Shown: piece after piece, positions 5,537 to 43,728 of the stretch
Layout: the number at the start of each line of letters is the position of its first letter
Numbering within the stretch: position 1 is the first letter of the stretch
NCBI GenBank assembly: GCA_035623825.1
Contig: DASPSR010000041.1
Coordinates: 1-50,803 of the forward strand
Direction: 5' to 3'
From: Nitrospirota bacterium
GTDB lineage: Bacteria; Nitrospirota; UBA9217
Length of the DNA stretch: 50,803 bases
Notes under the pieces: model-generated
Database searches by the model: none
Told to the model about the DNA's origin: nothing
What the model saw: only the letters and a program-made list of their open reading frames with translations
Program-made: the position numbers and the translations under genes

Positions 5537-5614
5537 GTCCCTACCTCCTGGTTATCCCTACATCTTTACCGGAAACCGGTCGGATCACGATGACGCCTGT
5601 TGTTGATAGACGGT

Positions 5615-6139: not shown

Positions 6140-6232
6140 GTTCTTACTTCTCCCGCTACGCGAACTAAAGCCAGGTACCAGATATAGATCGCGTTCCCGT
6201 TTTCTCTCCTGTGACCTTCGGTCCTGCTTCCG

Positions 6233-9291: not shown

Positions 9292-9350
9292 CTAAACCCT
9301 CGTCTCCGACCTCTACCTTCGGTCTGATCTATTTTCTCTGTCATCTGTCT

Positions 9351-10010: not shown

Positions 10011-10063
10011 GTCGCTTCACCTCTCAAAAAATACCGGCAATTCATCGAAACTGACGTACGGCG

Positions 10064-10981: not shown

Positions 10982-11056
10982 AAGTTCAAAACCTCAAATC
11001 GCAGATGATCATCATGCGTCTCTTCTTGTCCACGTCTCTGTCATTCAACGGTTGTC

Positions 11057-25654: not shown

Positions 25655-26160
25655 GGGTTCCCCTCCGCAATCGTCCGGATAGCGCCCGCCTCCTTCATGA
25701 TCGATGCCGCCCTGTTGCTCTCGCTTCCGGAGGTTGTGGAAACGCTGATGCCGATGGAGCCATCGCCGATCGCCGGGTCATAGACTCGTTCTCTTCGAGG
25801 GGGCAGTCTCATCTCGAGGAACATGCCCACGATCGCGCCGAGAATCGCGAAGAGCATGGTGAGCTCGTAGGTAACTATCCCTGCAGGGAAAAGGGCGACG
25901 ATCGGTTTATCGCCTGTCTGCACCGGATACATATAAGCTGTACCTGCTGCCAGGAGAAAGCCCGCGCAGGCGCCGAAGATCCCGCCGCCCAGGGACATCC
26001 AGCGGAACCACGTGCGTTGATCGGTCTTCACCAGCACACCGTCAGGATAGGGAGCTGAGGTAAGCGACGTGATCGTCTTCTCGGCAAAACCGGCTTTGAC
26101 CAGCCTCTCCACCGCCCTGTTCGCGGTTTCAACGTCGCTGAAGGTCCCCAGAGCTTCCAT
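25651..26160 (-). CDS. DUF3341 / ActD-like membrane protein
   Basis: PYP, TGDKP, YELTMLFA motifs with two TM segments; position within act operon. Confidence 0.82.
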   Translation of the reverse strand: MEALGTFSDVETANRAVERLVKAGFAEKTITSLTSAPYPDGVLVKTDQRTWFRWMSLGGGIFGACAGFLLAAGTAYMYPVQTGDKPIVALFPAGIVTYELTMLFAILGAIVGMFLEMRLPPRRERVYDPAIGDGSIGISVSTTSGSESNRAASIMKEAGAIRTIAEGNP

Positions 26161-26220
26161 CAGTTTACTCCTTATTAATCATCTCGACTTCAATCCTAAC
26201 CTTCAATCATAAGCCCGCGA

Positions 26221-27591: not shown

Positions 27592-28303
27592 GCTCGCGTC
27601 CTCCTCCCTTGAGATAGTTGATCGACGGGTGGGTGCCCAGATGCTCAAGGAGCCGGAAACGCCGGGGACTTCGGGCGAGACGCGATACCCGGCTCTGGGG
27701 ATCGGCCATGTTTCCGAAGACGAGGGCTTCAGGAGGACAGGTCTGGGCGCAGGCGGGCTGAACCTCCCCGTCCCTTATCAATCGTCCTTCGGCCTTTGCG
27801 TCTTCCTTGGCCCGGCGGATGCGCTGGATGCAGAAGGAGCATTTCTCCATGACGCCGCGAGGCCGCACGGTTATGTCCGGCGAGAGCTGGTTGTCTAGCG
27901 GCGGCGGCCAAGCGTGCTCATGGTCGTAGAAGTTGAAGACCCGAACGGCGTAGGGGCAGTTGTTGCCGCAGTAGCGGGTGCCCACACAGCGGTTGTAGAC
28001 CTGGCCGTTCAGGCCGTCGGGGTTATGGTAGCTGGCATAGACCGGGCATACCGGCTCGCAGGGGGCGTCGTGGCAGTGCTGGCAGAGCACCGGCAGGAAG
28101 CGCACCCGGACATCGGGATACTCGCCGACCCAGAAGCGCTCGATCCGAAGCCAGTGCATGTTACGGCCTTGAGCCATCTCCTTCTTGGCGCAGATGGCAA
28201 CGTTGTTCTCGGCCTGGCACGCTACAACGCACGCGCCGCACCCGGTGCAGCGGTCGAGATCCACGATCATTCCCCATTTGTACGGGCTTGTTATTTTTTC
28301 CAT
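27584..28303 (-). CDS. Fe-S subunit (ActB2-like; three [4Fe-4S] plus one [3Fe-4S])
   Basis: CTGCGACVVAC, CQHC..APCEPVCP, CVGTRYCGNNCP, RGVMEKCSFC..CAQTCP. Confidence 0.9.
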   Translation of the reverse strand: MEKITSPYKWGMIVDLDRCTGCGACVVACQAENNVAICAKKEMAQGRNMHWLRIERFWVGEYPDVRVRFLPVLCQHCHDAPCEPVCPVYASYHNPDGLNGQVYNRCVGTRYCGNNCPYAVRVFNFYDHEHAWPPPLDNQLSPDITVRPRGVMEKCSFCIQRIRRAKEDAKAEGRLIRDGEVQPACAQTCPPEALVFGNMADPQSRVSRLARSPRRFRLLEHLGTHPSINYLKGGGREHV

Positions 28304-28445
28304 CTTTGCAAAATCCTCATGATATTAAAATGTGTCCGACGCTGACCCGGACAAGCCGGGACCAAAAACTCTCATCACATAGACACCGAGGGCAAAAAAC
28401 ATCTACTGCATGGCGCTGCAATGAGTAAATCTGCCGTCTATCAGG

Positions 28446-30629
28446 TCAAATCTCTATCAGCTCGCTTCGGTAGCTCCCTTGCGGGTGACCTGCCGTCACG
28501 AGATCCCCCTTGTCGGAGATCCGCTTGACCCGCACCCGTGTGGCATTCCAAGCAGGAAGAGGCTTCGCTCCTTGGTTTGCCACCGCCAGAAGCTGAAGCG
28601 GATTCGCTCCCCTTCCCTTTGCGTAGCGCCCCATGTCCCTATGCCCCTGCCCCAGAGGCATCGCCACCATGTCGGGCCGGATGCCGGGGAAGATCACCGC
28701 AGGCACGCGCAGCGATCCCTGGGGGGACGTTACCTCTACCAGGTCGCCGAATTTGATACCCAGCTCGTCGGCGGTCTTGGGGTTGATCTCGACCCAGCTG
28801 TCCCAGACAACTGTAGTCATCGGGTCCGGGAGTTGCTGCAACCAGGGGAGCGGAGCGCCGCGGCCGTCGTAAAAAGCGGTCGAGGGGTATATCGTGAAGT
28901 GAAGCGGGAATTCCTTGTCATTGCCGTTGAACCGCGGCTTCGCCGGTTCAGGTATGCCCGCCGACCAGCGATAGCTTTTGCCCTGGCCCTGGTTCGTCTT
29001 GAAGATCCCCCCTTTTCGGAGGAGTTCGACCCACGTTGTTTCGAAATCCTTGCCGCCACCGACTTTCTGTTTCATCTCGGCCTTCAGCATTTCCACATAC
29101 GATCCAAAGGGGAACGCTGCCTTCATCTCCCCGCCCAGCCCTGTAGCCGCGGCCATCAGTACCTCCGGGAACTGGCGAGTGTCGAACACGGGCATGACCA
29201 CCGGCTGCATCAGCCCGGTCACACTGTCTCTCGTGCCGGCAAGCGGGATCACATCCCCCCAGCTCTCGAGGGCCGCATGGTCAGGCAGAACCAGGTCAGC
29301 CATAAGCGAGGTGTCGTCCATGAGCGAAGAGAAGCTCACGATGAACGGGACCTTGGCAAGGGCATCCTGGAAACCGGTGGACGGCGGGACTGTGTGGACC
29401 GGATCGCCAAGGATAAGGGCCACCCGGATAGTGCCATCCTGCATTTTTTTGACGAGGGAGAGAAGTTCATCAAAAGAGTTTACCGGGCCTTCCGGAGCGG
29501 CGTTGTCCGGATAAATCCCGCCGGTCTTGTTCAGGTTCCCTGCGAGCACATTCAGCAAATGGACCGCCCGGATTGATTCCGGACCGTTGCTCTGGAACGC
29601 GATCGTCTCGCCAGCCATGGCCAGAGCCGGACGGGTCACGGCAAACTCCCGCGCCACCTCGGCGATGGCCTGCTGCGAGAGCCCTGTCTCTTCCGCCACA
29701 CGGGGAAGATCGTACGGCCTGAGCCGCTCAAGCAATGTTTCCGCCCCGATTCCGTTCGCGGAAACGGCGGCCTTGTCATACAGAGACTCTGCCAGGATCA
29801 ACCTGGCCATACCCAGAGCCAGCGTTCCTTCGCTTCCCGGCCGCGCAGGCATCCAGCGGTCAGCCGATGCTGCGGTCAAAGACAGCCGTCCGCCAACATA
29901 GGTGAAATGACCGCGGACCGTGTCCCTCCCCTGGCGCATTCTGCCGAAGGCATAGCCGTACTGTACAGGTGACAAATGGCTTTCCACGAAGTCCGCACCG
30001 AAGCTCAAGAGATACCGGGTCTCGGCCACATCATAATAAGGAAGGCCCGGTTGGCCGAAGCTTTGGAGGGTTGCCTGTCGAAGCCAATCGGGTCCGAGCA
30101 GCTCATAGAAAAGCTGGTTAGGGGAACCGAAGGAGCGCATGAAGCTTGTCGTCAGCTTCGCCAAAGTGCCCCTGAGCTGGGGCGTCAGCAGGGCCAGACC
30201 CGACGATCCTTCCAGTTTGAGCGACTTGAGCCTTCCGACTAAAATGTTCAGCCCCTCGTCCCATGAGATCCTGGTAAATTCCCCCGACCCGCGCGACCCG
30301 CCTCGCTTCATGGGTTGCGGCACACGGTCGGGATGATACAGTTCCTGCAAAGCGGCCTGCCCCCGGGGACACAGTTTTCCCATGTTAACCGGATGAGTTG
30401 GATTCCCCTCTATCTTCTTTGCCCGCCCTTCCGATACCCGCACCAGGATGCCGCAGCCGGCAGGACAGGACCTGCAAGAGCTCGCATAATAATCGGCTTT
30501 GCCGGGAGTCACGCCCTCGTCCGGCGGGATCAGGTAGGGAATCAGTTTCTCGTTCGCGGACTTGCAGCCTGTCAGCATGGCGCCGGCGGTCGTAAGTCCG
30601 CTAAGCTGTAGAAAGGTCCTCCGCTTCAT
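28446..30629 (-). CDS. molybdopterin-oxidoreductase-fold subunit (ActB1/QrcB-like), Tat lipoprotein
   Basis: MKRRTFL Tat motif, LTGC lipobox, CRSCPAGC...KIEGNP.HP...LCPRGQ, WLQQLPDPMTTVVWD, VEINP. Confidence 0.88.
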   Translation of the reverse strand: MKRRTFLQLSGLTTAGAMLTGCKSANEKLIPYLIPPDEGVTPGKADYYASSCRSCPAGCGILVRVSEGRAKKIEGNPTHPVNMGKLCPRGQAALQELYHPDRVPQPMKRGGSRGSGEFTRISWDEGLNILVGRLKSLKLEGSSGLALLTPQLRGTLAKLTTSFMRSFGSPNQLFYELLGPDWLRQATLQSFGQPGLPYYDVAETRYLLSFGADFVESHLSPVQYGYAFGRMRQGRDTVRGHFTYVGGRLSLTAASADRWMPARPGSEGTLALGMARLILAESLYDKAAVSANGIGAETLLERLRPYDLPRVAEETGLSQQAIAEVAREFAVTRPALAMAGETIAFQSNGPESIRAVHLLNVLAGNLNKTGGIYPDNAAPEGPVNSFDELLSLVKKMQDGTIRVALILGDPVHTVPPSTGFQDALAKVPFIVSFSSLMDDTSLMADLVLPDHAALESWGDVIPLAGTRDSVTGLMQPVVMPVFDTRQFPEVLMAAATGLGGEMKAAFPFGSYVEMLKAEMKQKVGGGKDFETTWVELLRKGGIFKTNQGQGKSYRWSAGIPEPAKPRFNGNDKEFPLHFTIYPSTAFYDGRGAPLPWLQQLPDPMTTVVWDSWVEINPKTADELGIKFGDLVEVTSPQGSLRVPAVIFPGIRPDMVAMPLGQGHRDMGRYAKGRGANPLQLLAVANQGAKPLPAWNATRVRVKRISDKGDLVTAGHPQGSYRSELIEI

Positions 30630-30640
30630 CTGTGCTCCCT

Positions 30641-31195
30641 TTATTTATGGCATGTCCAGCAATCGATGCTTGCTTTATGCTGCTTGTGGCAGTTCAGACA
30701 CCAGCCCATCTCGATCTTGACTGACCGGGTGATCCGCGCCATAGCGGCCACCTCTCCGTGGCAACCTGCGCAGGCAAGTCCGGCTCGTATGTGCATCATG
30801 TGCGGGAAATAAACGAAGTCCGGCACCCAGTAGACGCGGACCCAGGGGATCGGCTCCTTTTTTTCCCAGTACTGCATCAGTTTCTTGATTTCAGGGGCGT
30901 TCTGTGCAATGAACAGGTGACAGGCCCGGCAGTCCGCCACTGCGGGGATGCCGGCGACCGGGGACTTGGGAGCGTAGCGATGACAGAAGAGGCACGGGAT
31001 GGCGTTGTCACCCGCATGGATTTTGTGGCTGAAGGCGATCGGCTGTACCGGAGAGCGATCAAGAAGATCCAGTGGCAATATGTACATGTATGCCAGGATG
31101 GCTGCGACAACAAGAACTGCGACTACTAGCCCGCTGATAAGCCACGATAATTTCATGGTCACTAGCAGGGAGAGCCCGATGACCGTGCGGACCAT
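30641..31195 (-). CDS. pentaheme cytochrome c (ActA/QrcA-like)
   Basis: QPIAFSHKIH; five CxxCH (CLFCH, CRACH, CAGCH, CLNCH, CWTCH); IPWVRVY..PDFVYF.H; MGWC. Confidence 0.9.
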   Translation of the reverse strand: MVRTVIGLSLLVTMKLSWLISGLVVAVLVVAAILAYMYILPLDLLDRSPVQPIAFSHKIHAGDNAIPCLFCHRYAPKSPVAGIPAVADCRACHLFIAQNAPEIKKLMQYWEKKEPIPWVRVYWVPDFVYFPHMMHIRAGLACAGCHGEVAAMARITRSVKIEMGWCLNCHKQHKASIDCWTCHK

Positions 31196-32136: not shown

Positions 32137-33126
32137 ATGAACTTATCGCCCTTTTTCAATTCCTATGCCGGCATGTATGTGGCCCAGTCGTTCTGTCATT
32201 CGGTGATTGCGTCCATCATCGCGGACCAGGCTGTGAAACTATGGAAGATCGACGATCCGGGGATACGCCAGCGGTTCCGCCTTATCGTCGTTCTCTTTCC
32301 GATCTTTTCGTTCCCTCTCTACCAGGTACTTAACCCCGGCAGAAGCTCGGTGCTGTTCCGGCTGAGCGCCCTCTTCGACATCAATCGGTGGCTGAATATG
32401 GAGATCTGGGGCATCATCCCTTTCAGCATCTTATTCCTGATCGTTCTTGCGATCACCTCCCTGATATTCCTGTTCCAGGAGATGGTCCCCGTTCTCAGGC
32501 ACACCCTCGAGTCGAAACACGCAGTCCATGATGGAGCGCGCACCCACGCCGATCCCTTTATCGAGCGCGCGTCCAATGAGCTCTCGATTGAGACGCCGGA
32601 GATGCTCATCGTGGACGATGATGAACCCGTGATCTTGTCGACGACGGGGAAGAACCCCGCCATCCTGATCTCTACCGGCCTGTCCAAGACGCTTACGCCG
32701 GACGAGATGCAGGCAGCGCTCGCCCATGAGATCGCGCATATCGCGCGGAGCCGACGCCCCGTGCTTCTGGTCGTATTTCTCCTGAGGGTGATCATGTTCT
32801 TTAATCCCGTCGTTCTCGTCGAATTCAGGCGGGTTGTCCGGAATGAAGAAAAGATCTGCGATGACATCGCTGTCTCGATAACGAATCGTCCGGAGGCGCT
32901 GGCGGAGGCCTTGAAGAAGTTTTATACCGTTCGCGACGCTCCTGGGCCCGATGTCGAGCGACCCCTGTTCACGCCGGTACGCCTTGAAGAGTACAGCTAC
33001 AATATGCAGCTTGACACCAGGATCACAAGACTTGAGCAGAATACGCCGCGGAGCGCCGGCGGCCGATGGTTTTCCTTTATGATCGTTATTCTCATCATTG
33101 CGGGTATAAGCTACTTTGTCGTATGA
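32137..33126 (+). CDS. M56/M48 family integral-membrane zinc metallopeptidase
   Basis: N-terminal TM segments, AALAHEIAH (HExxH), FFNPV, EEKICDD.A, P.ALAEAL; start at MNLSP. Confidence 0.85.
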   Translation: MNLSPFFNSYAGMYVAQSFCHSVIASIIADQAVKLWKIDDPGIRQRFRLIVVLFPIFSFPLYQVLNPGRSSVLFRLSALFDINRWLNMEIWGIIPFSILFLIVLAITSLIFLFQEMVPVLRHTLESKHAVHDGARTHADPFIERASNELSIETPEMLIVDDDEPVILSTTGKNPAILISTGLSKTLTPDEMQAALAHEIAHIARSRRPVLLVVFLLRVIMFFNPVVLVEFRRVVRNEEKICDDIAVSITNRPEALAEALKKFYTVRDAPGPDVERPLFTPVRLEEYSYNMQLDTRITRLEQNTPRSAGGRWFSFMIVILIIAGISYFVV

Positions 33127-33142
33127 CCGGGAGGTGAACGCG

Positions 33143-33679
33143 GTGCGATCACGAGCGTATGGTTTCTTATATTTTTTGCTGACCGTTGCGGCGGTGATCA
33201 TTGTCTTGAAGACCTTGAACTGGCTGCCCCTGGTGCTTCAGCAGGATACGATGAGAAGGTACGGCAGCGTCGAAGAGGTGAAGGCAAAACTGAACATCAA
33301 GGACCTGTACGTGCCGACGTATTTCCCGCAGAGCATAACGTGGCCGCCTTCGGAAATTCTGGCGCAGGCGAAACCGTATCCTGCGGTGCTCATGGTATTT
33401 AATCAAGCGGGCAAGCGCGATGTCGCACTCGTCATATCTCAGACCGCTTCGGGCGCCTTTTCCGGAAACGAGTTCATAAAATTGATCAAAATAACGGAAA
33501 CGGTCCCCTATCATTTTAAAGACGGGACGGCGCTCCTCGAGGTCGGCACATGCAAAAACGACGAGCCTTGCAGCAGGCTCTCATGGACTGAAGGCAGCTA
33601 CCGGCTGACCGCAGTCATGAAATCTCCTCCCTTCGAGCTGATCAGGATCGCAGAGAGCATGGAGAGCATGCTCCATTAG
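33143..33679 (+). CDS. hypothetical membrane-anchored/exported protein
   Basis: N-terminal TM, VPTYFPQSITWPP motif; GTG start behind GGAGG directly after the peptidase stop. Confidence 0.7.
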   Translation: MRSRAYGFLYFLLTVAAVIIVLKTLNWLPLVLQQDTMRRYGSVEEVKAKLNIKDLYVPTYFPQSITWPPSEILAQAKPYPAVLMVFNQAGKRDVALVISQTASGAFSGNEFIKLIKITETVPYHFKDGTALLEVGTCKNDEPCSRLSWTEGSYRLTAVMKSPPFELIRIAESMESMLH

Positions 33680-33952
33680 ACAGCCCGCCAGTGGCCCTTG
33701 ACATAGCCCTGCCGGCACTGCCACCATGCCGCTTTCGTACGCAGCCGGAGAACCCGGAAAGAACGCCCTTTTAGATCTCCTCGTCATGACGCTGTCCAGA
33801 GCGCGCTGCGCTCGATGACGGATTCCTCTCCCTCCCTATCTCTCGCAGCAAATTCCCATGCATGGGTCAGCAGCCGACCGTTTCCGCCACTTTCGGTCCT
33901 TCGCAGCGTGAGCGCAAATTCGGTCTTTTTTGCTCAATATTCCCCTGACTAT

Positions 33953-34019
33953 TACGATACCTTTCCCGTGCAAATAGGAATTTCTTCCAATATGCAAGGA
34001 TGGAAATCTTTGATATACA
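33953..34019 (+). promoter_or_regulatory. activator-dependent promoter A with two imperfect TAGGAA-N4-TTCCTA boxes
   Basis: TACGAT-acct-TTCCCG (33953-68), TAGGAA-tttc-TTCCAA (33975-90), then TGaTATACA extended -10. Confidence 0.6.
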
Positions 34020-34047
34020 CAAAGTAAACGGACAAAGGAGGTGCCAC

Positions 34048-34383
34048 ATGCTTACCTACAAGGGAGGACAAACAGTTGGAAAGGGAACGTACTGGGATCT
34101 GTCAAGCGGCCGGCGGATCGATGTGGTCAACGAAGCAGTGCTATCAGGAGGAAGGGCGACGTATGTCAGGATGTCGGCGGGTGTCATGCTGCTGTCGGGT
34201 CCGCTCATCGGGTTGCTCTACGCAGTGCTGATGCCTTTCGTCGGCATAGCATCTCTCGCGGTCCTTGCCGTAGGCGGCGTCCTGAAAGGTGCGTACGACC
34301 TGGCGGTGAAGAGCGTCTCCTTTGGATGGAGACCGATAAACGCCTACCTGTCAGGCAGGAAGAAAAGGAATGCAAAAAGGTAA
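34048..34383 (+). CDS. small hypothetical membrane protein, type A copy 1
   Basis: AGGAGG RBS; MLTYKGG..VGKGTYWDL..GRRID; paralog of 35049..35390. Confidence 0.8.
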   Translation: MLTYKGGQTVGKGTYWDLSSGRRIDVVNEAVLSGGRATYVRMSAGVMLLSGPLIGLLYAVLMPFVGIASLAVLAVGGVLKGAYDLAVKSVSFGWRPINAYLSGRKKRNAKR

Positions 34384-34405
34384 AGTTTCGGCAGCGCTTT
34401 TCCCG

Positions 34406-34435
34406 GCGAAGAGTGCGGACCTCCGCGCTCTTCGC
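34406..34435. other. strong intergenic hairpin without U-tract
   Basis: GCGAAGAGTGCGGA / TCCGCGCTCTTCGC arms. Confidence 0.5.
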
Positions 34436-34483
34436 GGACAACGAAAATCCCAAGACTGAAAATCACAGAGAGGAGGCACCATC

Positions 34484-34888
34484 ATGTTTACGCTTGTAGA
34501 TTTCATCACGCACATTAAGGGAGTCGAGTACATCCTGTCCATCCTTGCCATTGGAGGGTTTCTCCTTTTCTGGGAGGTCTTGAAGCCAAAGCCTTTCAGT
34601 ACCGTGATCGCCACCGGCAGGCAAGACTTGGAGCATATCCAGCAAACAGGATACGGTGATACCGTGAAGAGCATAGGAAAGATAGCGGCGGCCCCGTTCA
34701 TAGGCCTGTTTTATCTTGCCATGCTGCCTGTCGGATTTGCCGCAGCGCTTGTTATCGGAGTCGTTAATCTTACACTTAAAGGTTTAAGCGCCGTACTCGG
34801 TAAGAACATGTCTTTTGACTGGAGACCCATGGAGGCATACCTTGCCGGAAAGAAGACAAAGAAGGAGACCGGAGAAAAAATACAATAA
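34484..34888 (+). CDS. small hypothetical membrane protein, type B copy 1 (HmcD-like N-terminus)
   Basis: GGAGG RBS; MFTLVDFITHIKGVEY; paralog of 35505..35912. Confidence 0.8.
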   Translation: MFTLVDFITHIKGVEYILSILAIGGFLLFWEVLKPKPFSTVIATGRQDLEHIQQTGYGDTVKSIGKIAAAPFIGLFYLAMLPVGFAAALVIGVVNLTLKGLSAVLGKNMSFDWRPMEAYLAGKKTKKETGEKIQ

Positions 34889-34924
34889 TTTCATTATGAT
34901 ATGACATTTGTAATACTTTGTGTC

Positions 34925-34993
34925 TAAGAACAAATTCCTATGTGAAATAGGAGTTTCTTTCAATACCTATCCCGCGGGGTTGCCTGATATACT
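34925..34993 (+). promoter_or_regulatory. activator-dependent promoter B with two imperfect TAGGAA-N4-TTCCTA boxes
   Basis: TAAGAA-caaa-TTCCTA (34925-40), TAGGAG-tttc-TTTCAA (34948-63), then TGaTATACT extended -10. Confidence 0.62.
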
Positions 34994-35048
34994 ATTTTTG
35001 AAATTCACGGTAACCTGAGCAAGGGGAGAAAAAAAGGAGGTGAAACAT

Positions 35049-35390
35049 ATGCTTATCAACAAAGGCGGGCATTGGGTAAGCAAGGGTACGTACTGGGATT
35101 TGCGCAGAGGACGGAGAATTGATATTGCCGATGAAGGCGCGCTTCCTGGCGGCGAGACATCAACCTATCTCAGGATGCCATCGGGCGTCATGCTGTTATT
35201 GGGACCGATCATCGGATTGCTCTACGCCATACTGCTGCCGATTATCGGCATAGTAACCGTTGCAGCCCTGGCAGTGTACAAAATTCTGGGAGGCCTGTAC
35301 GACCTGGCGGCGAAAAGCATCTCCTTTGGATGGACACCGAAAAGCGCCTATCTTTCCGGAAAGAAAAAGAAGAAACAGGACACAAAGTAA
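35049..35390 (+). CDS. small hypothetical membrane protein, type A copy 2
   Basis: AGGAGG RBS before ATG 35049; KGG..VSKGTYWDL..GRRID. Confidence 0.8.
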   Translation: MLINKGGHWVSKGTYWDLRRGRRIDIADEGALPGGETSTYLRMPSGVMLLLGPIIGLLYAILLPIIGIVTVAALAVYKILGGLYDLAAKSISFGWTPKSAYLSGKKKKKQDTK

Positions 35391-35504
35391 CCATAAAAGT
35401 AGCTATATCATCATAGTGGGACAGCTCACCGATCTTGAAAGAAACTCAAGCGAAGGAAGATAAAGGTAATGTAACGACAATCAATTAGGGGAGGAGGGGA
35501 TTCT

Positions 35505-35912
35505 ATGTATACGCTGGTGGATTTTATCACGCACGTGAAGGGCATCGAGTATGTTCTGTCTTTGCTCGCTATCGCCGTGTTCCTGGTTTTCTGGGAAGAA
35601 CTGAAGCCCAAGCCTTTCCGGACGGTGGTCAATACCGGAAAGGACGATCTGGCGCATGTTAAGGAGGCCGGAGGGTTCAGGAGCATTCTGAAGAGCGTTG
35701 GCAAGATAGCAGCCGCTCCGTTCATCGGGTTGGCGTACATCGTGATGCTGCCGATCGGGTTCTTTGTGGCCTTGTCCGCTGCCGTCGTCAACCTTGCGGT
35801 GAAAGGGGCTGCGACCGTTGCAGGGAAGAGCATGACCTTTGAGTGGAGGCCTGTCGAAGCGTATTTCGCCGGGAAGAAGAATAAGAAGGAGAAGAAGACC
35901 GAACGGAAATAA
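35505..35912 (+). CDS. small hypothetical membrane protein, type B copy 2
   Basis: GGAGGAGG RBS; MYTLVDFITHVKGIEY...FEWRPVEAYFAGKK. Confidence 0.8.
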   Translation: MYTLVDFITHVKGIEYVLSLLAIAVFLVFWEELKPKPFRTVVNTGKDDLAHVKEAGGFRSILKSVGKIAAAPFIGLAYIVMLPIGFFVALSAAVVNLAVKGAATVAGKSMTFEWRPVEAYFAGKKNKKEKKTERK

Positions 35913-35960
35913 TGCGTGAATCGAGAGATAGAGAACGTTCCCAGGCAACGGAGGAATAAT

Positions 35961-36464
35961 ATGGAAAAAAGAATATGGAGTATCCTGATCTTCGCTTTTT
36001 GCATCATGGTCGCAACGTTTCTCCTCATTGGTAGCGGTATGAAGATCACCGTAGCGGATGCGTCCTCGGCATCGGGCCTACCGGGAGTCCGGACCTTAGG
36101 GAGCATTTCGAACCAGTATGCACCGGTACAGTTCGACCATCCCAAGCATGTCATGATCGCCGGCAACTGCGCTTCATGCCATCACCAGCACCCGGACAAC
36201 AAGAAATTGAACTGCACGGATTGTCATGCAATTGCTCCCGCTGTATTCAAAAACTCGGTAAAACAGAATTTCGCGGCCTGTTCTTCCTGTCACAGTGCCC
36301 CAGATCCCAGCAACCCCTCGGTGCCGGGCCTCAAGGTTGCGTATCATAAGCAGTGCTTTTCATGTCACCGGGGAATGGGCGACATCGGTGCCGACCCGAA
36401 AGGCTGTACCGAAATCTGTCATGTCAAGAAGGCGGCAAAACCCGGCGTGACGGCACAACCGTAG
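35961..36464 (+). CDS. periplasmic multiheme cytochrome c (c3/HmcA-like; four CxxCH plus one CxxxCH)
   Basis: Signal/anchor; PVQFDHPKH, CASCH, CTDCH, CSSCH, GLKVAYHKQCFSCH, CTEICH. Confidence 0.88.
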   Translation: MEKRIWSILIFAFCIMVATFLLIGSGMKITVADASSASGLPGVRTLGSISNQYAPVQFDHPKHVMIAGNCASCHHQHPDNKKLNCTDCHAIAPAVFKNSVKQNFAACSSCHSAPDPSNPSVPGLKVAYHKQCFSCHRGMGDIGADPKGCTEICHVKKAAKPGVTAQP

Positions 36465-36528
36465 ACTAAGGCGCGATACGCGGGATTCGCCGCGAGCAGA
36501 TTATCTACATGACCAAAGGAGGTCATCT

Positions 36529-37530
36529 ATGGGTAAGGAACCAAAAGGTCCGATGGAAGAACCCGTCGACCAAAGAGGGAAAGAAAAGGAACCTCAAAAA
36601 GACACCGGCAGGGGGATCAACAGGCGGGTCTTTCTGGGGGCCATGGCCGCAGCGGGGGGCGCCGTTGTGCTCGGTCGTCCGGAAAAGTCCCACGCCAGCG
36701 CTGAATTTGAAGGATATCCCAACAGCTTCGGCCTGTTGACGGACCTGACCGCCTGTGTCGGGTGCCGCAGCTGCGAAAAGGCATGCAACGAAGAGAATAA
36801 GCTGCCCGCACCTGCCCAGCCGTTCGACGATGGATCCGTCTTCAAAGAGGAGCGGGCGCCGACAGAAAAGGCATACACGGTGGTCAACAGGTATGAGAAC
36901 CCGAAGGACAAGGACAAACCGATCTACCGCAAGATACAGTGCAACCACTGCAAGGAACCGGCGTGTCTCACCTCCTGCCCCATCCATGCATATTCGAAGA
37001 CGCCGGAAGGAGCGGTCAAGTATGATCCCGACCTCTGCTTCGGATGCCGCTACTGCATGACGGCTTGCCCCTTCTATATCCCGGCCTTCAATTACTGGAG
37101 CGCATTGGAGCCCCGCATCATGAAGTGCACCATGTGCTTGTCCAGGATCAAGGCGGGCAAGATGACGGCTTGCGCCGAAGCCTGTCCAGTCGGAGCGATC
37201 ACCTTCGGGAAGCGCGAGGAACTCATCAAGATTGCCCAGGAGAAGATAGACAACAACCCCGGCAAGTACGTTAACCATATCTATGGCCAATACGAGGTGG
37301 GGGGCACCAATTGGCTCTATGTTTCGGGAGTCCCATTCGACCAGGTCGGTTTACCGACGAACCTTCCTAGCAAGCCGCTCATCGAGGAGACCAAGGGCTT
37401 CCTCAGCGCGGTTCCGGTGGTATTGACGGCATGGCCTGCTCTTTTCGGCACGATCTACGCGGCCTTGCGCCATAGAGAAGACATGGCGAAGGAAGAGAAG
37501 GAAGAGAAAAAAGAGGAGGTAAAAAAATGA
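36529..37530 (+). CDS. Tat-exported four-[4Fe-4S] protein (HybA/HmcB-like)
   Basis: INRRVFLG; CVGCRSCEKAC, CNHCKEPACLTSCP, CFGCRYCMTACP, CTMC..CAEACP; YVNHIYG..EVGGT; C-terminal TM. Confidence 0.9.
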   Translation: MGKEPKGPMEEPVDQRGKEKEPQKDTGRGINRRVFLGAMAAAGGAVVLGRPEKSHASAEFEGYPNSFGLLTDLTACVGCRSCEKACNEENKLPAPAQPFDDGSVFKEERAPTEKAYTVVNRYENPKDKDKPIYRKIQCNHCKEPACLTSCPIHAYSKTPEGAVKYDPDLCFGCRYCMTACPFYIPAFNYWSALEPRIMKCTMCLSRIKAGKMTACAEACPVGAITFGKREELIKIAQEKIDNNPGKYVNHIYGQYEVGGTNWLYVSGVPFDQVGLPTNLPSKPLIEETKGFLSAVPVVLTAWPALFGTIYAALRHREDMAKEEKEEKKEEVKK

Positions 37531-38777
37531 GCACGAATATGGCTGTCAAACCAACGACACCGGCAGAGAGCTTCCGGTCCTGGTTCATGGACAAGCTGTT
37601 AATGGGCATGACCTGGCCCGAATACTTCAGAAGCCTGATCACGCCGTTCAACATCGTCGCGGCGGTGATCCTGTGCGTCGGTCTGCCGTTGATCGCGATG
37701 CGCTTTATACTCGGTCTCTATCTGGTGACCCATGCTTCGAACGAGTACCCCTGGGGCCTGTATCTCGGCTGGGGGCTCTTCGGGGGCGTGCCGCTTTCGG
37801 CCACGGGGTTCGTCATGGCGACGGCGTACTACATCTTCGGATTCAAGAGATACCATCCGATCCTGAGACTCGGCGTCCTGACCGGTTTTCTGGGATACCT
37901 CTTCGCCGTGATCTACCTGCTCATCGACCTCGGGAGGCCCTGGAGGATCTATTACCCCATGATCATCGGGTTCGGCACGCAATCGGTGCTGTTCCTGGTG
38001 GCATGGCATGTCGCCACGTACCTCACGGTGCAGCTGGTCGAATTCAGTCCTGCCATCCTGGAGTGGCTCAAGTCTCAACGGGTGCGCAGATGGGCGGTGA
38101 TGCTCACGATCGGCATGACGATCGCGGGTATCATTCTCTCGACGCTCCACCAGTCGGCGCTGGGCGCGATGTATCTCCTCGTCCCCGGGAAACTTCACCC
38201 CCTGTGGTATAGCTCGTACATCCCCGTGTTCTTCCTCAGTTCAAGCATCTATGCCGCTCTGGCGATGGTGATCGTGGTGAGCACGCTGTCGATCCGTTTC
38301 CTGAAGAACAGGACCGACCAGACGTTCCGGGAGAGCCTCCCCAAGCTGACCCTTGGCCTGGGCCAGGGCGCCGCTGTCGGCATGTATGTCTATCTCATAT
38401 TCAAGATCATAGGCATTGCCCATGACAACAACTGGCACCTGCTGGCGGCAGGAGGATACAGCAATTGGTTCCTTCTTGAAATCCTGGGATTCGTCCTGGC
38501 CCCTGCCCTGTTGTTCACGTTCGGCGTTAAAAAGCAGAACGTGTCCATGGTGCGGTTCGCGGCCTTCTGGGCCGTGGTCGGGATCGTCTTCAACAGGCTG
38601 AACGTCTCGATTATTGCTCTTAACTGGAACCTGCCGCATCATATCCAGCACATCATTCCGCCGTGGAGGGAAGCGATGGTGGTCATGGCGATCGCGACGA
38701 TCCACATCCTCATTTTCCGGTGGATTTTGAACCGCATGCCCGTGCTCCATGCGGACACTGATTATGAGGCTCACTAG
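37527..38777 (+). CDS. NrfD-family membrane subunit (HybB/HmcC-like)
   Basis: YPWGL, DLGRPWR, LSTLHQSALG, KLHPLWYS, NRLNV; overlaps the upstream stop codon. Confidence 0.9.
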   Translation: MSTNMAVKPTTPAESFRSWFMDKLLMGMTWPEYFRSLITPFNIVAAVILCVGLPLIAMRFILGLYLVTHASNEYPWGLYLGWGLFGGVPLSATGFVMATAYYIFGFKRYHPILRLGVLTGFLGYLFAVIYLLIDLGRPWRIYYPMIIGFGTQSVLFLVAWHVATYLTVQLVEFSPAILEWLKSQRVRRWAVMLTIGMTIAGIILSTLHQSALGAMYLLVPGKLHPLWYSSYIPVFFLSSSIYAALAMVIVVSTLSIRFLKNRTDQTFRESLPKLTLGLGQGAAVGMYVYLIFKIIGIAHDNNWHLLAAGGYSNWFLLEILGFVLAPALLFTFGVKKQNVSMVRFAAFWAVVGIVFNRLNVSIIALNWNLPHHIQHIIPPWREAMVVMAIATIHILIFRWILNRMPVLHADTDYEAH

Positions 38778-38793
38778 GTAGAAACGCGACAAC

Positions 38794-38901
38794 GCAGCAG
38801 AGACACGGAGACAGGGGGAATGGGAGCGAAAAACACAACTCTGAGGCACAGCGGAATGAATTGCCATCTGATATTCTTTATGTCTCCCTTGTCTCTGCTG
38901 C
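38794..38901. repeat. intergenic inverted repeat element
   Basis: GCAGCAGAGACACGGAGACA (38794-38813) and near-complement TGTCTCCCTTGTCTCTGCTGC (38881-38901). Confidence 0.6.
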
Positions 38902-38948
38902 TTGAACCTGTTTTTGGGAAGTCCTAACGCCGCGCCCTGGGGGTGCGT

Positions 38949-40388
38949 ATGAAGCAAGGGAAACTCATAATTCCTTTGGCGCTGTCTCTGTCCATCGCGT
39001 TACTGCTCGTAGCCGTGCCCGCGGCGGGAAATGCAGGCCTTCCGGGCGAGAACCAAGCCTGTTTATCCTGCCATGCGCAGCATGGGCTCATGGTGACGTT
39101 CGAGAACAAGGAATTTCTCGAGGCCTATGTTGACACCGGTATCATCAGCTCGTCTATCCATCATTCCTTACCGTGTTCGGACTGTCACCCCGATTTTGCC
39201 GGAGGGAAGCACCCGAAGAGGACATTCCACAGCAAGACGAATTACCAGACGAAGGCGGCGCTCGTGTGCAGGCGATGCCATACCGACCGTCAGCTCAAGG
39301 CGAGCAGCGTCCACACGGCGCTCTTCGATCAGGAGAAAACAGGCACAGCAATCGTCTGCACGAACTGCCACGGTTCTCACTCCATCACCCACATAGCGAA
39401 AGCAGCGAAGTACTCGAGCGAGGAGGCGTACTGCTTGAAATGTCACGGATATCGCCTGACACTGACGTTCAGGAACAGAGAGACGCTCTCCGGGACCATA
39501 AACATATCAACGCTGCAGTCCTCGGTGCACAACAAATTGTCTTGCTCCGACTGTCATTATGGATTTTCGTCCGAAGAGCACCCAAAAAGGAATTTCTCGA
39601 CACGCAGGGACTATACACTGGCAGCGTCCGACAACTGCAGGCGCTGTCACTTCGACAAATATACCAAGACCATGGAAGGCATTCATTATACCATGCTGAG
39701 CCAGGGTGACCTGGCTGCCCCGGTATGCATTGACTGTCACGGCTCCCACGGGATATCCCGCATCCAGCGAGCGGTGATCGCCAAGTGGTGCCAACGGTGC
39801 CATGCGGACATCTACGACATCTACGCAAAAAGCGTCCATGGAAAGGCGCTCTTGGGCGAAAGCAATCAGGATGTGCCGGTATGTGCAGACTGCCACACGG
39901 CGCATACGATAGAAGACCCGCGAACCTTGAATTACCAGGAGCGCGTCCCCGATATATGCAGCAACTGCCACGCCAATAAAACCGTGGTCGGGAAGTACGG
40001 CCTATCGACAGCCGTCGTAGACACCTATCTCTCGGATTTCCACGGCGTAACGCTCAAGTTTTACAAACTGCAGCAGGGGGTGCTGAACAAGCCGGCCAGG
40101 CCCATGGCCGTGTGCACGGACTGCCATGGCGTACATAATATCAACAGCACCAGCGGCCCTGATGCGACGGTCGTGAAGGCAAATCTGGTGAAAAGATGCC
40201 AGAAGTGCCATGCGGAGGCGCCCAAGAATTTCCCTGATTCGTGGCTCTCGCATTACGAACCCAGCCTCGAACGGGCCCCGCTCGTCTTTTTCATAACATT
40301 GGCCTACAAGATCTTTATACCGATCCTCGTGGCTGGGCTGGTCCTGCAGATCCTTCTCCACATATGGCGCTATGTGGCCAACCGGTGA
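38949..40388 (+). CDS. 13-heme cytochrome c with C-terminal membrane anchor
   Basis: Signal peptide, 13 CxxCH motifs counted, recurring SVH spacers, C-terminal hydrophobic helix. Confidence 0.9.
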   Translation: MKQGKLIIPLALSLSIALLLVAVPAAGNAGLPGENQACLSCHAQHGLMVTFENKEFLEAYVDTGIISSSIHHSLPCSDCHPDFAGGKHPKRTFHSKTNYQTKAALVCRRCHTDRQLKASSVHTALFDQEKTGTAIVCTNCHGSHSITHIAKAAKYSSEEAYCLKCHGYRLTLTFRNRETLSGTINISTLQSSVHNKLSCSDCHYGFSSEEHPKRNFSTRRDYTLAASDNCRRCHFDKYTKTMEGIHYTMLSQGDLAAPVCIDCHGSHGISRIQRAVIAKWCQRCHADIYDIYAKSVHGKALLGESNQDVPVCADCHTAHTIEDPRTLNYQERVPDICSNCHANKTVVGKYGLSTAVVDTYLSDFHGVTLKFYKLQQGVLNKPARPMAVCTDCHGVHNINSTSGPDATVVKANLVKRCQKCHAEAPKNFPDSWLSHYEPSLERAPLVFFITLAYKIFIPILVAGLVLQILLHIWRYVANR

Positions 40389-40404
40389 TGGAAAGGAGGA
40401 CGAG

Positions 40405-41121
40405 ATGGATATCGACACGTTCATGCAAGATGAACAGATGAAACGATTTCCCTTTGCCCGTATCGTTGAGCACTGGGTACTCGTGCTGATCTTTGGCGTC
40501 CTCGTCTGCACCGGGCTTTCCCAGAAATTCTATTCTCTCGATGTTTCCCAGTGGCTCATCCTTCACTTAGGGGGGATAGACAATGTCAGGCTCATCCACC
40601 GCATCGCCGGAGTGCTCGCTTCATTGGGCGTCATCACGCACCTGGCCATTGCCGCCATCGGCATTGTGTATCTGAAATGGCAGCCTACCATGGTCATAAG
40701 CAAAAAAGATTTTACCGATGTCGTGCAGAATATCAGGTATTACCTGGGCGTGGAACAATCTCCCGCACGGGGCGGCAGGTACACGTACAAACAGAAATTC
40801 GAATACTGGGGGATTCTCACGGGCATGCTCCTGATGATGTTTACGGGGATCATCCTCTGGTTCCCCTTAACGATGACGGCGTTCCTGCCGGGTGAGATCA
40901 TCCCCGCAGCCAAGGTCCTTCACGCGAATGAGGCGTTCGTGGTCTTTCTCATTATCGCCATCTGGCATATCTACAACGCCATCTTCAGCCCCGATGTCTT
41001 TCCCCTGGACACGAGTATATTGACCGGGTACCTGTCGAAGGAGCGGATGCTCCGTGAACATCCCGACGAGCTTGCCGAAATGGAGGAAAAGCCGCGCAAG
41101 AGAACGCGGGCGACTTTCTGA
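40405..41121 (+). CDS. cytochrome b (FdnI/HydC family, CbcL-b-domain-like)
   Basis: RF...EHW...TGLSQKF, LIHRIAG, RYTYKQKFEYWG, TGIILWFP, LHANEA, WHIYN; GGAGG RBS before ATG 40405. Confidence 0.88.
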   Translation: MDIDTFMQDEQMKRFPFARIVEHWVLVLIFGVLVCTGLSQKFYSLDVSQWLILHLGGIDNVRLIHRIAGVLASLGVITHLAIAAIGIVYLKWQPTMVISKKDFTDVVQNIRYYLGVEQSPARGGRYTYKQKFEYWGILTGMLLMMFTGIILWFPLTMTAFLPGEIIPAAKVLHANEAFVVFLIIAIWHIYNAIFSPDVFPLDTSILTGYLSKERMLREHPDELAEMEEKPRKRTRATF

Positions 41122-41153
41122 GGCCCTTCGGAGCGCGGCTTTCCGTCATCACC

Positions 41154-41197
41154 GGGCGCACGGATTGAACGGACCCGCCCCTTTTTCTTTATTTTTT
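41154..41197 (+). terminator. putative intrinsic terminator
   Basis: GGGCG...CGCCC arms followed by a long T-rich run, downstream of the cytochrome b gene. Confidence 0.45.
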
Positions 41198-41222
41198 AAA
41201 CGTGGTGAGTTATAATCTGCCT

Positions 41223-43076
41223 ATGACCAGGCACAAAGGGAGCTTGCGGAAAAGAATAACCTTCCTTATCCTCATAGGGATTTCGATCATTCTGCTGAGC
41301 TTAGGGGTGGCAAGCCACTACATCATTCAAAAGAACATCGATGATCTGCTGAACAAGCAACTCGCTCTGTCCCGTGTTACCAGGAACAACGTAGACAACA
41401 TCATTCAGGATAATATCAACCGCCTCTACGACATATCGATGTCTGGCGCGGTCGATCTGGAGGACGGCAATTTAGCGCCTGAACGGGAGGCCGTAAGGGC
41501 TGCGTACCGTTATTCCATCTTCACCGACGGGATATTCCTGCTGGACAAAGGCGGGAACGTCATCTTGAATTATCCCGAGAGGATGCGGGATGCATCCCTG
41601 AATGTGCTCAGTATCGAACCGATAAGGAGGATGCTCGCCGTCGGGAGACCGGTGGTGTCGAACATTTACACTATTGAACCGTCAAAGAAAAAGATCCTGT
41701 ACGTTCTGGTGCCGCTCAAGGATAAGAACGGACGGACAGTCGGGGTAGCGGGAGGACAGATAGACCCTACCAGCCCGCTCCTGCTGCAGAAATTGGGGCT
41801 GGTTGACATCGGGAAGGATCAGTTCATCGATATCATGGATTCCAACGGGGTGGTTGTCGCCTCATCGAATCCTTCGCGGATGTTCACCCAGTGCGACCGC
41901 AACAGTTTTTTCACGACCATCATCCGTGAACGGAAAGAACGGGTGGCTACCTGCCACGTCTGTCATGAGGGCGGCAAAAAGGAGGAGCGGCTCTCGACCG
42001 TCCTTGCGTTCGTGCCGCTTACAACCGCCCCCTGGGGCATATCCGTACAGCAGCTGAGGGAAGACGTCTTCGCCCCCTCGGAGAACCTCAAGCGGCTCTT
42101 CATCATTCTCGGTTTCATATTCATCGGAACCGCGATGATCCTTACCATCGGCATCAGCCGAAGTATCGTCGACCCGCTTAAGGAACTGATCAGCGGAGCA
42201 GACCGCATCGCGCGGGGAGATCTGTCAAACCCGATCGCCCCGCAAGGGAGCGACGAGATCGGGGTTCTGAGCCAGAGCTTCGAGACCATGCGTGGAAAGC
42301 TGCTTGAATCGGGGAAAAGGATCCATCGTCATACCCAAGAGCTCGAGACGCGGGTCAAAGAGCGAACGCGGCAGATCAGGGAGAGTCAGGAAAGGGCCGA
42401 GAAACTGCTGAAGAAAGTTATTTCCTCCCAGGAGGACGAGCGGAAGCGGATCGCGCGCGAGCTGCATGACGATCCTCTCCAGGAACTGTCGGCGGCGCTC
42501 ATGAGAATCGACATATGCCGGTTACGCCCCGCAGAGGTCACCGAGGAGAAGATGGATGCCGTGCGCAGCATCATCGTGAACGCCTATGACGGTTTACTCG
42601 CTATCATGCAGAACTTGAGGCCTTCGCTGCTCGATGATCTGGGGCTCATCGCCGCGGTGCAATCCCTCCTCGAGATACACCTCCGCGATAAAGGCATCCA
42701 CTATTTCATCAACACCGCGGGCTTGACGGACACTCGGTTCCGTCCCGAGGTTGAAATCATCCTTTTCAGGATCATGCAGGAGGCTGTGGTGAACATCGCG
42801 AGGCATTCCGAGGCAAAGAATGTCTTCATCCTCTTCAGATCCGACAGAAAGAGCGTCTATGCAGAAATCGAAGATGACGGGATCGGCTTCGATGTCGGCT
42901 CCTTGTTCACCCACGCGCCCGATGTCCGGGACCGCCGCGGTCTCGGCATCCTCGGGATGAAAGAGCGGGCGCTCCTGATCGGAGGAGAAATGGAGATTTG
43001 TTCTCAGCCGGACCAGGGCACGAAAATCGGGATCCGGATCCCCTTGAAACCTGCGGAGGTCGAATATGCCTCATAA
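41223..43076 (+). CDS. sensor histidine kinase (Cache-like sensor with CxxCH, HAMP, HisKA_3, HATPase)
   Basis: Two TMs, CHVCH between them, DEIGVLSQSFETM HAMP, QEDERKRIARELHD, FRIMQEAVVNIARH, DDGIGF, GLGILGMKER. Confidence 0.92.
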   Translation: MTRHKGSLRKRITFLILIGISIILLSLGVASHYIIQKNIDDLLNKQLALSRVTRNNVDNIIQDNINRLYDISMSGAVDLEDGNLAPEREAVRAAYRYSIFTDGIFLLDKGGNVILNYPERMRDASLNVLSIEPIRRMLAVGRPVVSNIYTIEPSKKKILYVLVPLKDKNGRTVGVAGGQIDPTSPLLLQKLGLVDIGKDQFIDIMDSNGVVVASSNPSRMFTQCDRNSFFTTIIRERKERVATCHVCHEGGKKEERLSTVLAFVPLTTAPWGISVQQLREDVFAPSENLKRLFIILGFIFIGTAMILTIGISRSIVDPLKELISGADRIARGDLSNPIAPQGSDEIGVLSQSFETMRGKLLESGKRIHRHTQELETRVKERTRQIRESQERAEKLLKKVISSQEDERKRIARELHDDPLQELSAALMRIDICRLRPAEVTEEKMDAVRSIIVNAYDGLLAIMQNLRPSLLDDLGLIAAVQSLLEIHLRDKGIHYFINTAGLTDTRFRPEVEIILFRIMQEAVVNIARHSEAKNVFILFRSDRKSVYAEIEDDGIGFDVGSLFTHAPDVRDRRGLGILGMKERALLIGGEMEICSQPDQGTKIGIRIPLKPAEVEYAS

Positions 43077-43728
43077 GATGAGAGTGCTGATCGCAGACGA
43101 TCATGCCCTCGTTCGGGAAGGTATTGCGGCGTTCCTCAAGCTCTGCGACGATATCGAGGTCGTGGGGGAGGCTTCTGACGGGCTGGAGGCCATCGAGAAG
43201 ACCGGCAAGTTCCGCCCTGATATCGTCATCATGGACATCAACATGCCAAAGCTCGGCGGGCTCGAAACGACCATTGAAATCAAGAAGACGTGGCCGGACA
43301 CTAAAGTGCTGGTGCTGACCCAGTATGAGGACAAGGAATACATAACCCGCTTTCTCAAGGCGGGGGTCTCGGGGTATCTGCTCAAAAAGGCTGTGGGAAG
43401 CGATCTCGTAACAGGGCTGAGGGCGATCGGCAGGGGCGAATTATATCTTTACTCCTCCATTGCCACCGAAGTCGTGTCACGCTACCTCCATGGAGACGGC
43501 AAGGAGGGGATGGAGGACCCCTATGAAAAACTTTCAGACCGTGAAAAACAGGTATTAAGGCTCGTCGCAGAAGGGTATACGCACAAGGAAGTGGCCGACA
43601 TGCTGAACATAAGCGTCAAAACCGTCATTGCGCACCAAACCAATTTAGGCGAAAAACTGGGCATTCGCACCCGAGCAGCCCTGATCAAGTTCGCGATTCA
43701 AAAAGGAATCATAAAGATCGACACGTGA
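43066..43728 (+). CDS. NarL/LuxR-family response regulator
   Basis: LIADDH, DINMP, GYLLK, LSDREKQVL...ISVKTV..H..N...KL. Confidence 0.95.
   Translation: MPHKMRVLIADDHALVREGIAAFLKLCDDIEVVGEASDGLEAIEKTGKFRPDIVIMDINMPKLGGLETTIEIKKTWPDTKVLVLTQYEDKEYITRFLKAGVSGYLLKKAVGSDLVTGLRAIGRGELYLYSSIATEVVSRYLHGDGKEGMEDPYEKLSDREKQVLRLVAEGYTHKEVADMLNISVKTVIAHQTNLGEKLGIRTRAALIKFAIQKGIIKIDT

Follow-up and report, generated by a model that had tools for sequence, protein, structure and literature searches.

A conserved, regulated locus of Nitrospirota assembled from two known kinds of quinone-cytochrome module

Anoxic soils, peat and aquifers commonly harbour uncultured Nitrospirota with Dsr genes, and how the quinone pool of these bacteria is connected with the many cytochromes of their periplasm is, to our knowledge, not known. 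Does a locus found in one of them provide such a link, and is it a new kind of system? The locus occupies positions 32137-43728 of a 50,803-nucleotide (nt) stretch of DNA (the window), which is contig C6 of a Nitrospirota genome (G000; 3.24 Mb, 90% complete), and it contains 13 open reading frames (ORFs), all on the + strand. An earlier note on this DNA had read these co-oriented genes as one undescribed, self-regulated, redox-sensing switchboard, in which two different quinone-interacting modules without a catalytic subunit exchange electrons with periplasmic cytochromes. The genes that it named were all recovered, and two different modules without an enzyme are supported. We conclude that the locus is real, conserved and assembled from known kinds of module; the pairing of the two modules is optional and made from familiar parts, while the regulatory switch and a family of small membrane proteins (smA) look uncharacterised.

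Counts were made in 36 genomes of the host family and in 24 genomes from other families. A close orthologue of the module 2 cytochrome b was present in 29 of the 36 family genomes. Both modules were adjacent in 16 of the 36, the close NrfD orthologue of module 1 always standing directly before the 13-haem cytochrome gene of module 2, and the parts of the locus do therefore co-occur in other genomes. Thirteen carried module 2 with the peptidase, sensor and regulator genes and no module 1 orthologue, several of these genomes being 97-100% complete; seven carried neither module, and no close orthologue of either was found in the other families (0/24). In the module-2-only genomes the order is peptidase, orf2, sometimes smA, 13-haem cytochrome, cytochrome b, kinase and regulator, and orf2 or smA runs directly into the 13-haem gene in 12 of the 13, the thirteenth ending at a contig edge. 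One genome (G031) is heavily frameshifted, and duplicate loci (L023, L024 and L033) were removed from the counts. Single additional modules occur in two genomes: in G034 a second module 1 that is accompanied by neither module 2 nor regulators (L032), and in G028 a second module 2 that lacks module 1 (L067). Among 80 metagenome loci with an NrfD alignment, 49 are at least 4 kb long; both modules were found in 12 of these 49, all close relatives, whereas nine distant loci resembled Hmc and had a DsrK/HmcF-type gene, and two others were linked to a hydrogenase. Full Hmc-like loci were seen only in distant metagenome contigs. Because 13 of the 29 genomes with module 2 have no module 1 orthologue, the conserved core is, judged by gene content, module 2 plus its regulators and not the two-route switchboard of the earlier note.

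Module 2 consists of a 13-haem periplasmic cytochrome c (38949-40388), with exactly 13 CxxCH motifs and a C-terminal transmembrane helix (TM), and of an FdnI-type cytochrome b with four TMs (40372-41121; likely start at 40405, judged by the ribosome-binding site). The latter aligns to Escherichia coli FdnI at E 2.7e-13 and retains all four haem His, in agreement with what had been proposed for this pair. Two further His were near-invariant among 38 orthologues: the cytochrome b has a fifth one (H73, numbered from 40423), and the 13-haem protein has one in its C-terminal helix. The two surplus conserved His of the module lie on the cytoplasmic side. Natural fusions of the two proteins exist (P0121, with 13 haems, and P0123). 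In a cytochrome b tree obtained by a quick search, the 13-haem type grouped apart from the CbcBA-like 7-haem pairs and the CbcL-like 9-haem/5-TM pairs of relatives; the FdnI/HydC outgroup was placed within the ingroup, which is probably a long-branch artefact, and we claim from this tree neither a root nor an order of gain and loss. Module 2 is thus CbcL/CbcBA-like by architecture, yet forms, on this grouping, its own subfamily. The relatives in question are other Nitrospirota, in which we observed 7-haem cytochromes paired with a cytochrome b (L074, L075 and L078), preceded in L074 and L075 by Gly-rich small leader genes, and 9-haem cytochromes paired with a 5-TM cytochrome b, like a split CbcL (L076 and L077).

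Module 1 contains a small multihaem cytochrome, a Tat-exported Fe-S protein and an NrfD-family protein, as had been claimed, and motifs and family matches confirm all three. The cytochrome (35961-36464) is of class III (c3-type) and, with four CxxCH motifs and one conserved CxxxCH, probably carries five haems; it is homologous to the C-terminal c3 domain of HmcA and of the nine-haem cytochrome (PDB 2E84, E 1.2e-13; 1DUW, E 6e-13). The HmcB/NhcB-like four-cluster Fe-S protein (36529-37530) has a twin-arginine motif and a C-terminal TM anchor, its 16 Cys fall into four groups, and it scored 409.9 bits with HmcB (cut-off 420) versus 218.5 with HybA. The quinone-interacting NrfD-family subunit (37527-38777; PF03916) scored 424.7 bits with HmcC (cut-off 550) versus 189.5 with HybB. 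In a quick tree of 68 rows, which did not include an authentic NhcC, it fell in a 26-row HmcC/NhcC clade with HmcC-like proteins (SH-aLRT 95), one of them from a Desulfovibrio sp.; E. coli HybB and enzyme-linked paralogues of the same family lay outside this clade. Its residues D134, S153 and R357 stand at positions comparable, short of a direct alignment with NhcC, to the quinone-site Asp/Ser and the gate Arg, and S153 and R357 are conserved. A PDB search with the NrfD protein alone returned nothing useful, and a search of plasmids returned HybB-level matches only. Natural fusions of this NrfD type with the Fe-S subunit or with C-terminal multihaem domains were observed (P0137, P0150, P0157 and P0165), and the NrfD-Fe-S fusions belong to clusters with members named Nitrospinota.

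The locus contains no hydrogenase, molybdoenzyme or HmcE/F gene, as the note had stated, and the best match of an HmcF search of the 90%-complete source genome was DsrK. A mini-Hmc without HmcE/F is a described kind: Nhc has been presented as an Hmc operon that lacks hmcE and hmcF, has a shortened hmcA, and is used for H2 in Desulfovibrio piger (Price et al., PMC4215793), and NhcC has been listed in 64 species, one of them of the Nitrospirae (Calisto and Pereira, PMC8076601). By its subunit composition, module 1 is an Nhc-type complex, that is, Hmc without HmcE/F.

Four small genes precede module 1: an smA-smB pair has been duplicated in tandem together with its promoter, and the two resulting pairs are about 1.0 kb apart. 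smA1 (34048-34383) has a small beta-domain, a TM helix and a WRPxxAYLxG tail; smA2 (35049-35390) is its tandem paralogue, with 74% DNA identity over 212 nt. smB1 (34484-34888) and smB2 (35505-35912) join an HmcD-like N-terminus to a C-terminal TM domain that they have in common with smA and that ends in the same WRPxxAYLxG motif, and smB2 would be the HmcD-like subunit of the Nhc-type module. Their matches to HmcD (NF045712, 27.7 and 25.2 bits) are below the cut-off of 34, and PF28260 (sulf_resp_HmcD) was found on 118 of 120 smB homologues among the matches listed. The locus had been credited with four unknown membrane proteins; two of them, the smB proteins, are thus not entirely without a relative, and the small or unnamed proteins number five when the 178-residue orf2 is counted. 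smA matched no Pfam family (17 scattered weak matches over 63 members) and no known fold, and we found no support for a Cys-less zinc-ribbon/YjzC domain. The leader genes of the 7-haem modules (L074 and L075) did not match the smA or smB profiles.

smA was found, often in several copies, in 28 of the 36 family genomes, all among the 29 that have module 2; the 24 genomes from other families had no copy. In the four loci examined of seven, the N-terminal half of smA is fused to a paralogue of the 13-haem cytochrome, and a HydC-type cytochrome b comes next (L167:4768-7226, L168:4155-6591, L169 and L170); several of these fusions lie 8-19 kb from norB. Stand-alone copies were also observed. The source genome has two smA-smB cassettes, each with an operator (C65:125-987, L165; C14:81154-81924, L166), the smA of the second being without the beta-domain, and genomes that have no Nhc module contain up to five stand-alone smA genes, most with an operator (L171-L180 and L185). 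Its sequence and distribution make smA a multicopy, co-regulated family of small membrane proteins that looks uncharacterised.

The genes of module 1 and module 2 lie downstream of two promoters. Promoter 1 (33950-34019, + strand) comprises a weak upstream box, an operator (33974-33991) and, 19 nt further, an extended -10 (34011-34018); its operator scored 27.3 bits, the best match in the genome. The duplicated promoter 2 (34924-34993, + strand) comprises a box (34924-34941) and an operator (34947-34964), which scored 14.2 and 22.7 bits, and an extended -10 from 34985. The operator has the palindromic sequence ATWGGAA-N4-TTCCWAT, and a second box stands one repeat upstream of it. Of 30 smA upstream regions, 28 carry the palindrome at a distance of 18-20 nt from a downstream TGnTA extended -10 (19 nt in 22, 18 nt in three and 20 nt in three). 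The matrix was trained on relatives only, G000 being left out, and the four smA promoters of the source genome were nevertheless its top four matches there (27.3, 23.8, 22.7 and 19.9 bits; next 16.6). Matches below 17 bits were at the null level, and a wider regulon in this genome was rejected; a generic scan for promoters and terminators likewise gave counts near those of shuffles (9 versus 8.2; 16 versus 11).

Of 14 loci without module 1, eight have an operator of at least 13 bits in front of smA or the 13-haem gene, and the same layout was seen by eye in several module-2-only loci outside these eight. It also stands upstream of most stand-alone smA copies and of three of the four smA-cytochrome fusions, and no match was found in L032, which has module 1 only and no regulator. 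These positions indicate that the operators travel with the two-component pair and are real; we infer that the palindrome is bound by the locus's own regulator. To this extent the self-regulation postulated in the earlier note holds, as the operators exceed chance by their position.

The two-component pair consists of a sensor kinase (41223-43076), in which a double Cache (dCache) domain with a CxxCH insert is followed by HAMP, HisKA_3 and HATPase domains, and of a NarL/LuxR-family response regulator (43066-43728), the putative operator binder by family match and by co-occurrence with the operator. The kinase has one periplasmic CxxCH, and in 35 homologues the motif is CxxCH in 26, CxxCK in three (L091, L092 and L098) and CxHG in six (L027, L030, L031, L034, L035 and L064). 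The CxHG kinases have a His-rich stretch upstream of the motif, which suggests that this subgroup uses a different cofactor. The sensor domain gave no DUF3365 match and nothing useful in a PDB search. Signalling Cache-haem domains have been reported in a preprint as sensors of nitric oxide (NO) that are enriched in Nitrospirota (10.64898/2026.02.01.703092), and a second preprint describes one Cache-haem receptor (10.64898/2026.05.25.727664). Because such domains are reported to bind NO, the redox sensing proposed by the note becomes one of two readings; by analogy, the haem-Cache domain may sense NO instead of redox potential.

At its upstream end, the locus encodes an M56 (BlaR1-like) membrane zinc metallopeptidase (32137-33126; PF05569, 55.9 bits), whose HEIAH motif conforms to an HExxH retained in all aligned homologues, and orf2 (33143-33679), a 178-residue protein with one N-terminal TM and a probably periplasmic domain with a conserved Cys pair. 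No BlaI partner (PF03965) was found in the 90%-complete genome. orf2 belongs to a DUF4367-like cluster; its modelled domain (pLDDT 92) has a Mog1/PsbP/RseB-C-like fold, and its best structural matches, to PsbP, MucB and RseB, have a Z of about 8, a range common by chance. On this model, orf2 and the peptidase may act together as a split sensor-protease.

Two metatranscriptome studies of peat contain contigs that are nearly identical to the locus; those of run X1 span 34036-34874, 35201-37334, 37827-38607, 38675-39015, 40768-41221 and 42080-42383. Such contigs show that the sequence is present but say nothing of strand, of level or of whether there is one transcript, and they could stem from DNA carry-over; those of run X1 skip the peptidase pair and most of the ACIII-like operon upstream of the locus, although a gap in cover proves nothing.

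What might such a locus do? We tentatively propose, with a probability of roughly 0.45, an inducible exit from menaquinol to the periplasm that is built on module 2, module 1 being an optional parallel route. The core would be a CbcL/CbcBA-like quinone:cytochrome c oxidoreductase with its haem-c sensor kinase, LuxR regulator and upstream peptidase/sensor pair, and the Nhc-type module (HmcD-like subunit, c3-type cytochrome, Fe-S protein and NrfD) would be an optional insert behind the same promoter. The periplasmic haem sensor would respond to a haem ligand or to an altered state of the acceptor; the phosphorylated regulator would then bind the tandem palindromes, sites recognised by their conservation, and activate a promoter that has only an extended -10. 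The two modules would run in parallel as separate complexes, and electrons would pass from menaquinol to periplasmic cytochromes and from these to outer-membrane conduits or periplasmic reductases, as the Geobacter CbcL and CbcBA precedents suggest. Co-occurrence and fusions point to smA and smB as co-induced accessory membrane subunits, smA probably serving 13-haem modules and smB the Nhc module.

The outward direction is favoured because the formate dehydrogenase and both NiFe hydrogenases of the source genome have their own cytochrome b, encoded directly after each of them, because this genome encodes an MtrB-type porin with deca- and nona-haem cytochromes as well as NapA (NapAB), NrfH/NrfA-like and NorBC-like proteins, and because 31 of its ORFs have at least three CxxCH motifs. 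The porin, of the MtrB/PioB type, adjoins DmsE-type and MtrC-like cytochromes on contig C22, and the porin-cytochrome conduit for which a search had been advised was thus found. This cluster (C22:46897-51855, L159) comprises the porin with 9- and 10-CxxCH cytochromes; we also observed a second possible porin-cytochrome cluster, without a family match (C48:60913-63802, L160), and 26- and 16-haem cytochromes beside an NHL protein (C53:3009-6271, L161).

Several points weigh against this proposal. Nhc is described as a cytochrome c3:quinone oxidoreductase for H2 uptake, which is the opposite direction (PMC8076601, PMC4215793), and the homology of module 2 to Geobacter CbcL, CbcA and CbcB was judged by published architecture and not by sequences. 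Related genomes are non-independent samples, and promoters duplicated along with their genes share motifs by descent. In the genome scan, four operator matches were found at 17 bits versus one to four with column-shuffled matrices, and 13 at 14 bits versus 5-27; the number of hits being within the shuffled range, the operator case rests on the position of the top four. The operator scored below 13 bits in 6 of the 14 module-2-only loci, some of them cut by contig ends. Finally, both genes of the peptidase pair stand upstream of the first operator, and no site of at least 12 bits was found for them.

A doubtful but possible alternative is electron uptake, in which both modules reduce menaquinone from periplasmic or extracellular donors such as H2- or formate-reduced cytochromes, minerals or partner cells, and the FdnI-type redox loop conserves energy and feeds Dsr/Apr or nitrate respiration. 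The Nhc precedent speaks for it, as a TpI-c3:quinone oxidoreductase whose D. piger version matters for H2 use (PMC8076601, PMC4215793), and so do the retention of all four FdnI His in the cytochrome b and the presence of dsrAB, DsrMK and aprA in the host, where profile matches over cut-off were obtained for these genes and for dsrC (a DsrD search gave no match, not even in controls). However, the host hydrogenases and formate dehydrogenase have a cytochrome b of their own, and it is the better-conserved half of the locus that resembles the Geobacter quinol oxidases.

It is unlikely that the locus answers primarily to NO, nitrite or O2, the haem-Cache kinase sensing an NO-like ligand and inducing a supply of quinol electrons to NO, nitrite or oxygen reductases. 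The two Cache-haem preprints support this idea, the kinase insert being similarly placed, CxxCK variants included; NorB homologues occur in 24 of the 29 genomes with module 2 versus two of the seven without; and the ACIII-like operon and cytochrome bd genes lie directly upstream. The sensor domain, however, is a dCache without a DUF3365 match, nor, nap, nrf and cyd genes are absent from the strong operator matches of the source genome, and the NorB trend is confounded by kinship and fragmentation. NapA exceeded its cut-off in only 7 of 37 genomes and an NrfA orthologue was present in 11 of 36; a Nap- or Nrf-specific role was rejected as a general explanation on these counts.

Finally, a single supercomplex of both modules, perhaps held together by the TM domain common to smA and smB, is improbable; it would cycle electrons through menaquinone and drive reverse electron flow by the different proton stoichiometry of its routes. 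The close module 1 orthologue directly before the 13-haem gene in 16 of 16 genomes, the 12 of 49 longer metagenome loci with both modules, the joining in smB of an HmcD-like domain to the smA C-terminal domain and the two extra conserved cytoplasmic-side His of module 2 would suit it, but module 2 is alone in 13 genomes, several of them 97-100% complete, module 1 is alone in L032 and in most distant loci, and a 171-nt gap separates the NrfD and 13-haem genes. In a more elaborate and equally speculative form, smA/smB adaptors would dock both modules via the TM/WRPxxAYLxG domain, a b-haem site formed by the surplus His would couple two quinone sites of different proton stoichiometry, the haem-Cache ligand sensor would switch the system on, and the M56 protease with its RseB-like partner would tune it; such a docked assembly, if true, would give subsurface sulfate-reducing Nitrospirota a regulated redox-loop device of a new type with which to respire at low energy.

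Other respiratory genes share the window. Directly upstream, on the - strand (25199-31195), lie an ACIII-like operon (pentahaem cytochrome, molybdopterin-like subunit, Fe-S protein, NrfD, a match to ActD and monohaem cytochrome) and then cydAB-like genes, a label that is our own reading of the sequences. The ACIII-like operon, a third quinone-interacting module nearby, also adjoins the locus in L012, L013 and L016. Farther away (108-13048, - strand) are two successive sets of genes that read as Hyf/Ech-like group 4 hydrogenases or antiporters.

The inducible exit built on module 2 requires no new principle, both halves of the locus being variants of known complexes. With module 2 in 29 of the 36 family genomes and a defined operator, the locus is a conserved, regulated candidate for the link between quinones and periplasmic cytochromes, and it opens direct tests of what the double-Cache haem sensor detects and of the roles of the HmcD-like and smA proteins. 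In the mostly openly accessible literature searched, we found no published account of the two modules and their regulators together; a Nitrospirota member may be listed in the supplements of PMC6295460 and PMC8076601, which lay outside this scope.

Compared with known systems, no described complex corresponds one-to-one to the whole locus, but each half maps onto a known kind. Module 1 resembles NhcABCD of Desulfovibrio desulfuricans ATCC 27774 and D. piger as published, with a c3-type cytochrome, a four-cluster Fe-S protein, an HmcC-clade NrfD and an HmcD-like subunit, and with neither HmcE/F nor an enzyme. It differs in that its cytochrome has about five haems versus nine in NhcA, its D subunit is multicopy and fused to an extra TM domain, and it stands beside a second module under a LuxR-type operator. 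With HmcABCDEF of Desulfovibrio vulgaris the likeness lies in family matches: HmcB is the best NCBIfam match of the Fe-S subunit, HmcC that of NrfD and HmcD that of the small subunit. All three are below cut-off, and the 16-haem HmcA and HmcE/F are absent here. Unlike Hyd-2 (HybOABC), the locus has no HybO or HybC, and HybB falls in another clade. Geobacter Cbc4 (CbcSTU) is described with a comparable set of anchored small cytochrome, four-cluster Fe-S protein and NrfD-like subunit and no enzyme (10.1101/2025.04.14.648717), but CbcS has an NrfH/CymA-type tetrahaem core, whereas the cytochrome here is of class III and matches HmcA/NhcA, not NrfH.

The regulators depart from their models in a similar way. 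Like the Cache_heme sensors (DUF3365/Tll0287 family), the kinase has a CxxCH inserted in the periplasmic Cache of a signalling protein; unlike them, it has a double Cache without a DUF3365 match, and CxxCK and CxHG variants. The peptidase has the HExxH of BlaR1 but no penicillin-binding sensor domain, nor was BlaI found in the 90%-complete genome.

According to Joshi et al. (10.1101/2021.04.15.440034), CbcL has six TMs and five His, and CbcBA is split into two proteins, of which CbcB has three His; the description of CbcL agrees in PMC9129911 and PMC6295460, and the survey of the CbcL/MtoC/MtrH family allows 3-23 haems and rare forms with four or five TMs (PMC6295460). As in CbcL (GSU0274) and this family, by their description, module 2 joins a multihaem c domain via a His-bearing TM to an FdnI-type b domain. 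Unlike CbcL, it is encoded by two genes and has 13 haems, not nine, and five TMs (1+4), not six; the 9-haem, 5-TM split form of L076 and L077 fits CbcL better. As reported for CbcBA (GSU0593/0594, Cbc5), a separate cytochrome with a His-bearing C-terminal TM accompanies a four-TM cytochrome b, with 13 versus seven haems and with four FdnI His plus one versus the three reported for CbcB. The CbcBA operon, too, is described as inducible and led by small hypothetical genes (10.1101/2021.04.15.440034), its control being by the sigma-54 activator BccR and that of the present locus by a LuxR-type two-component pair.

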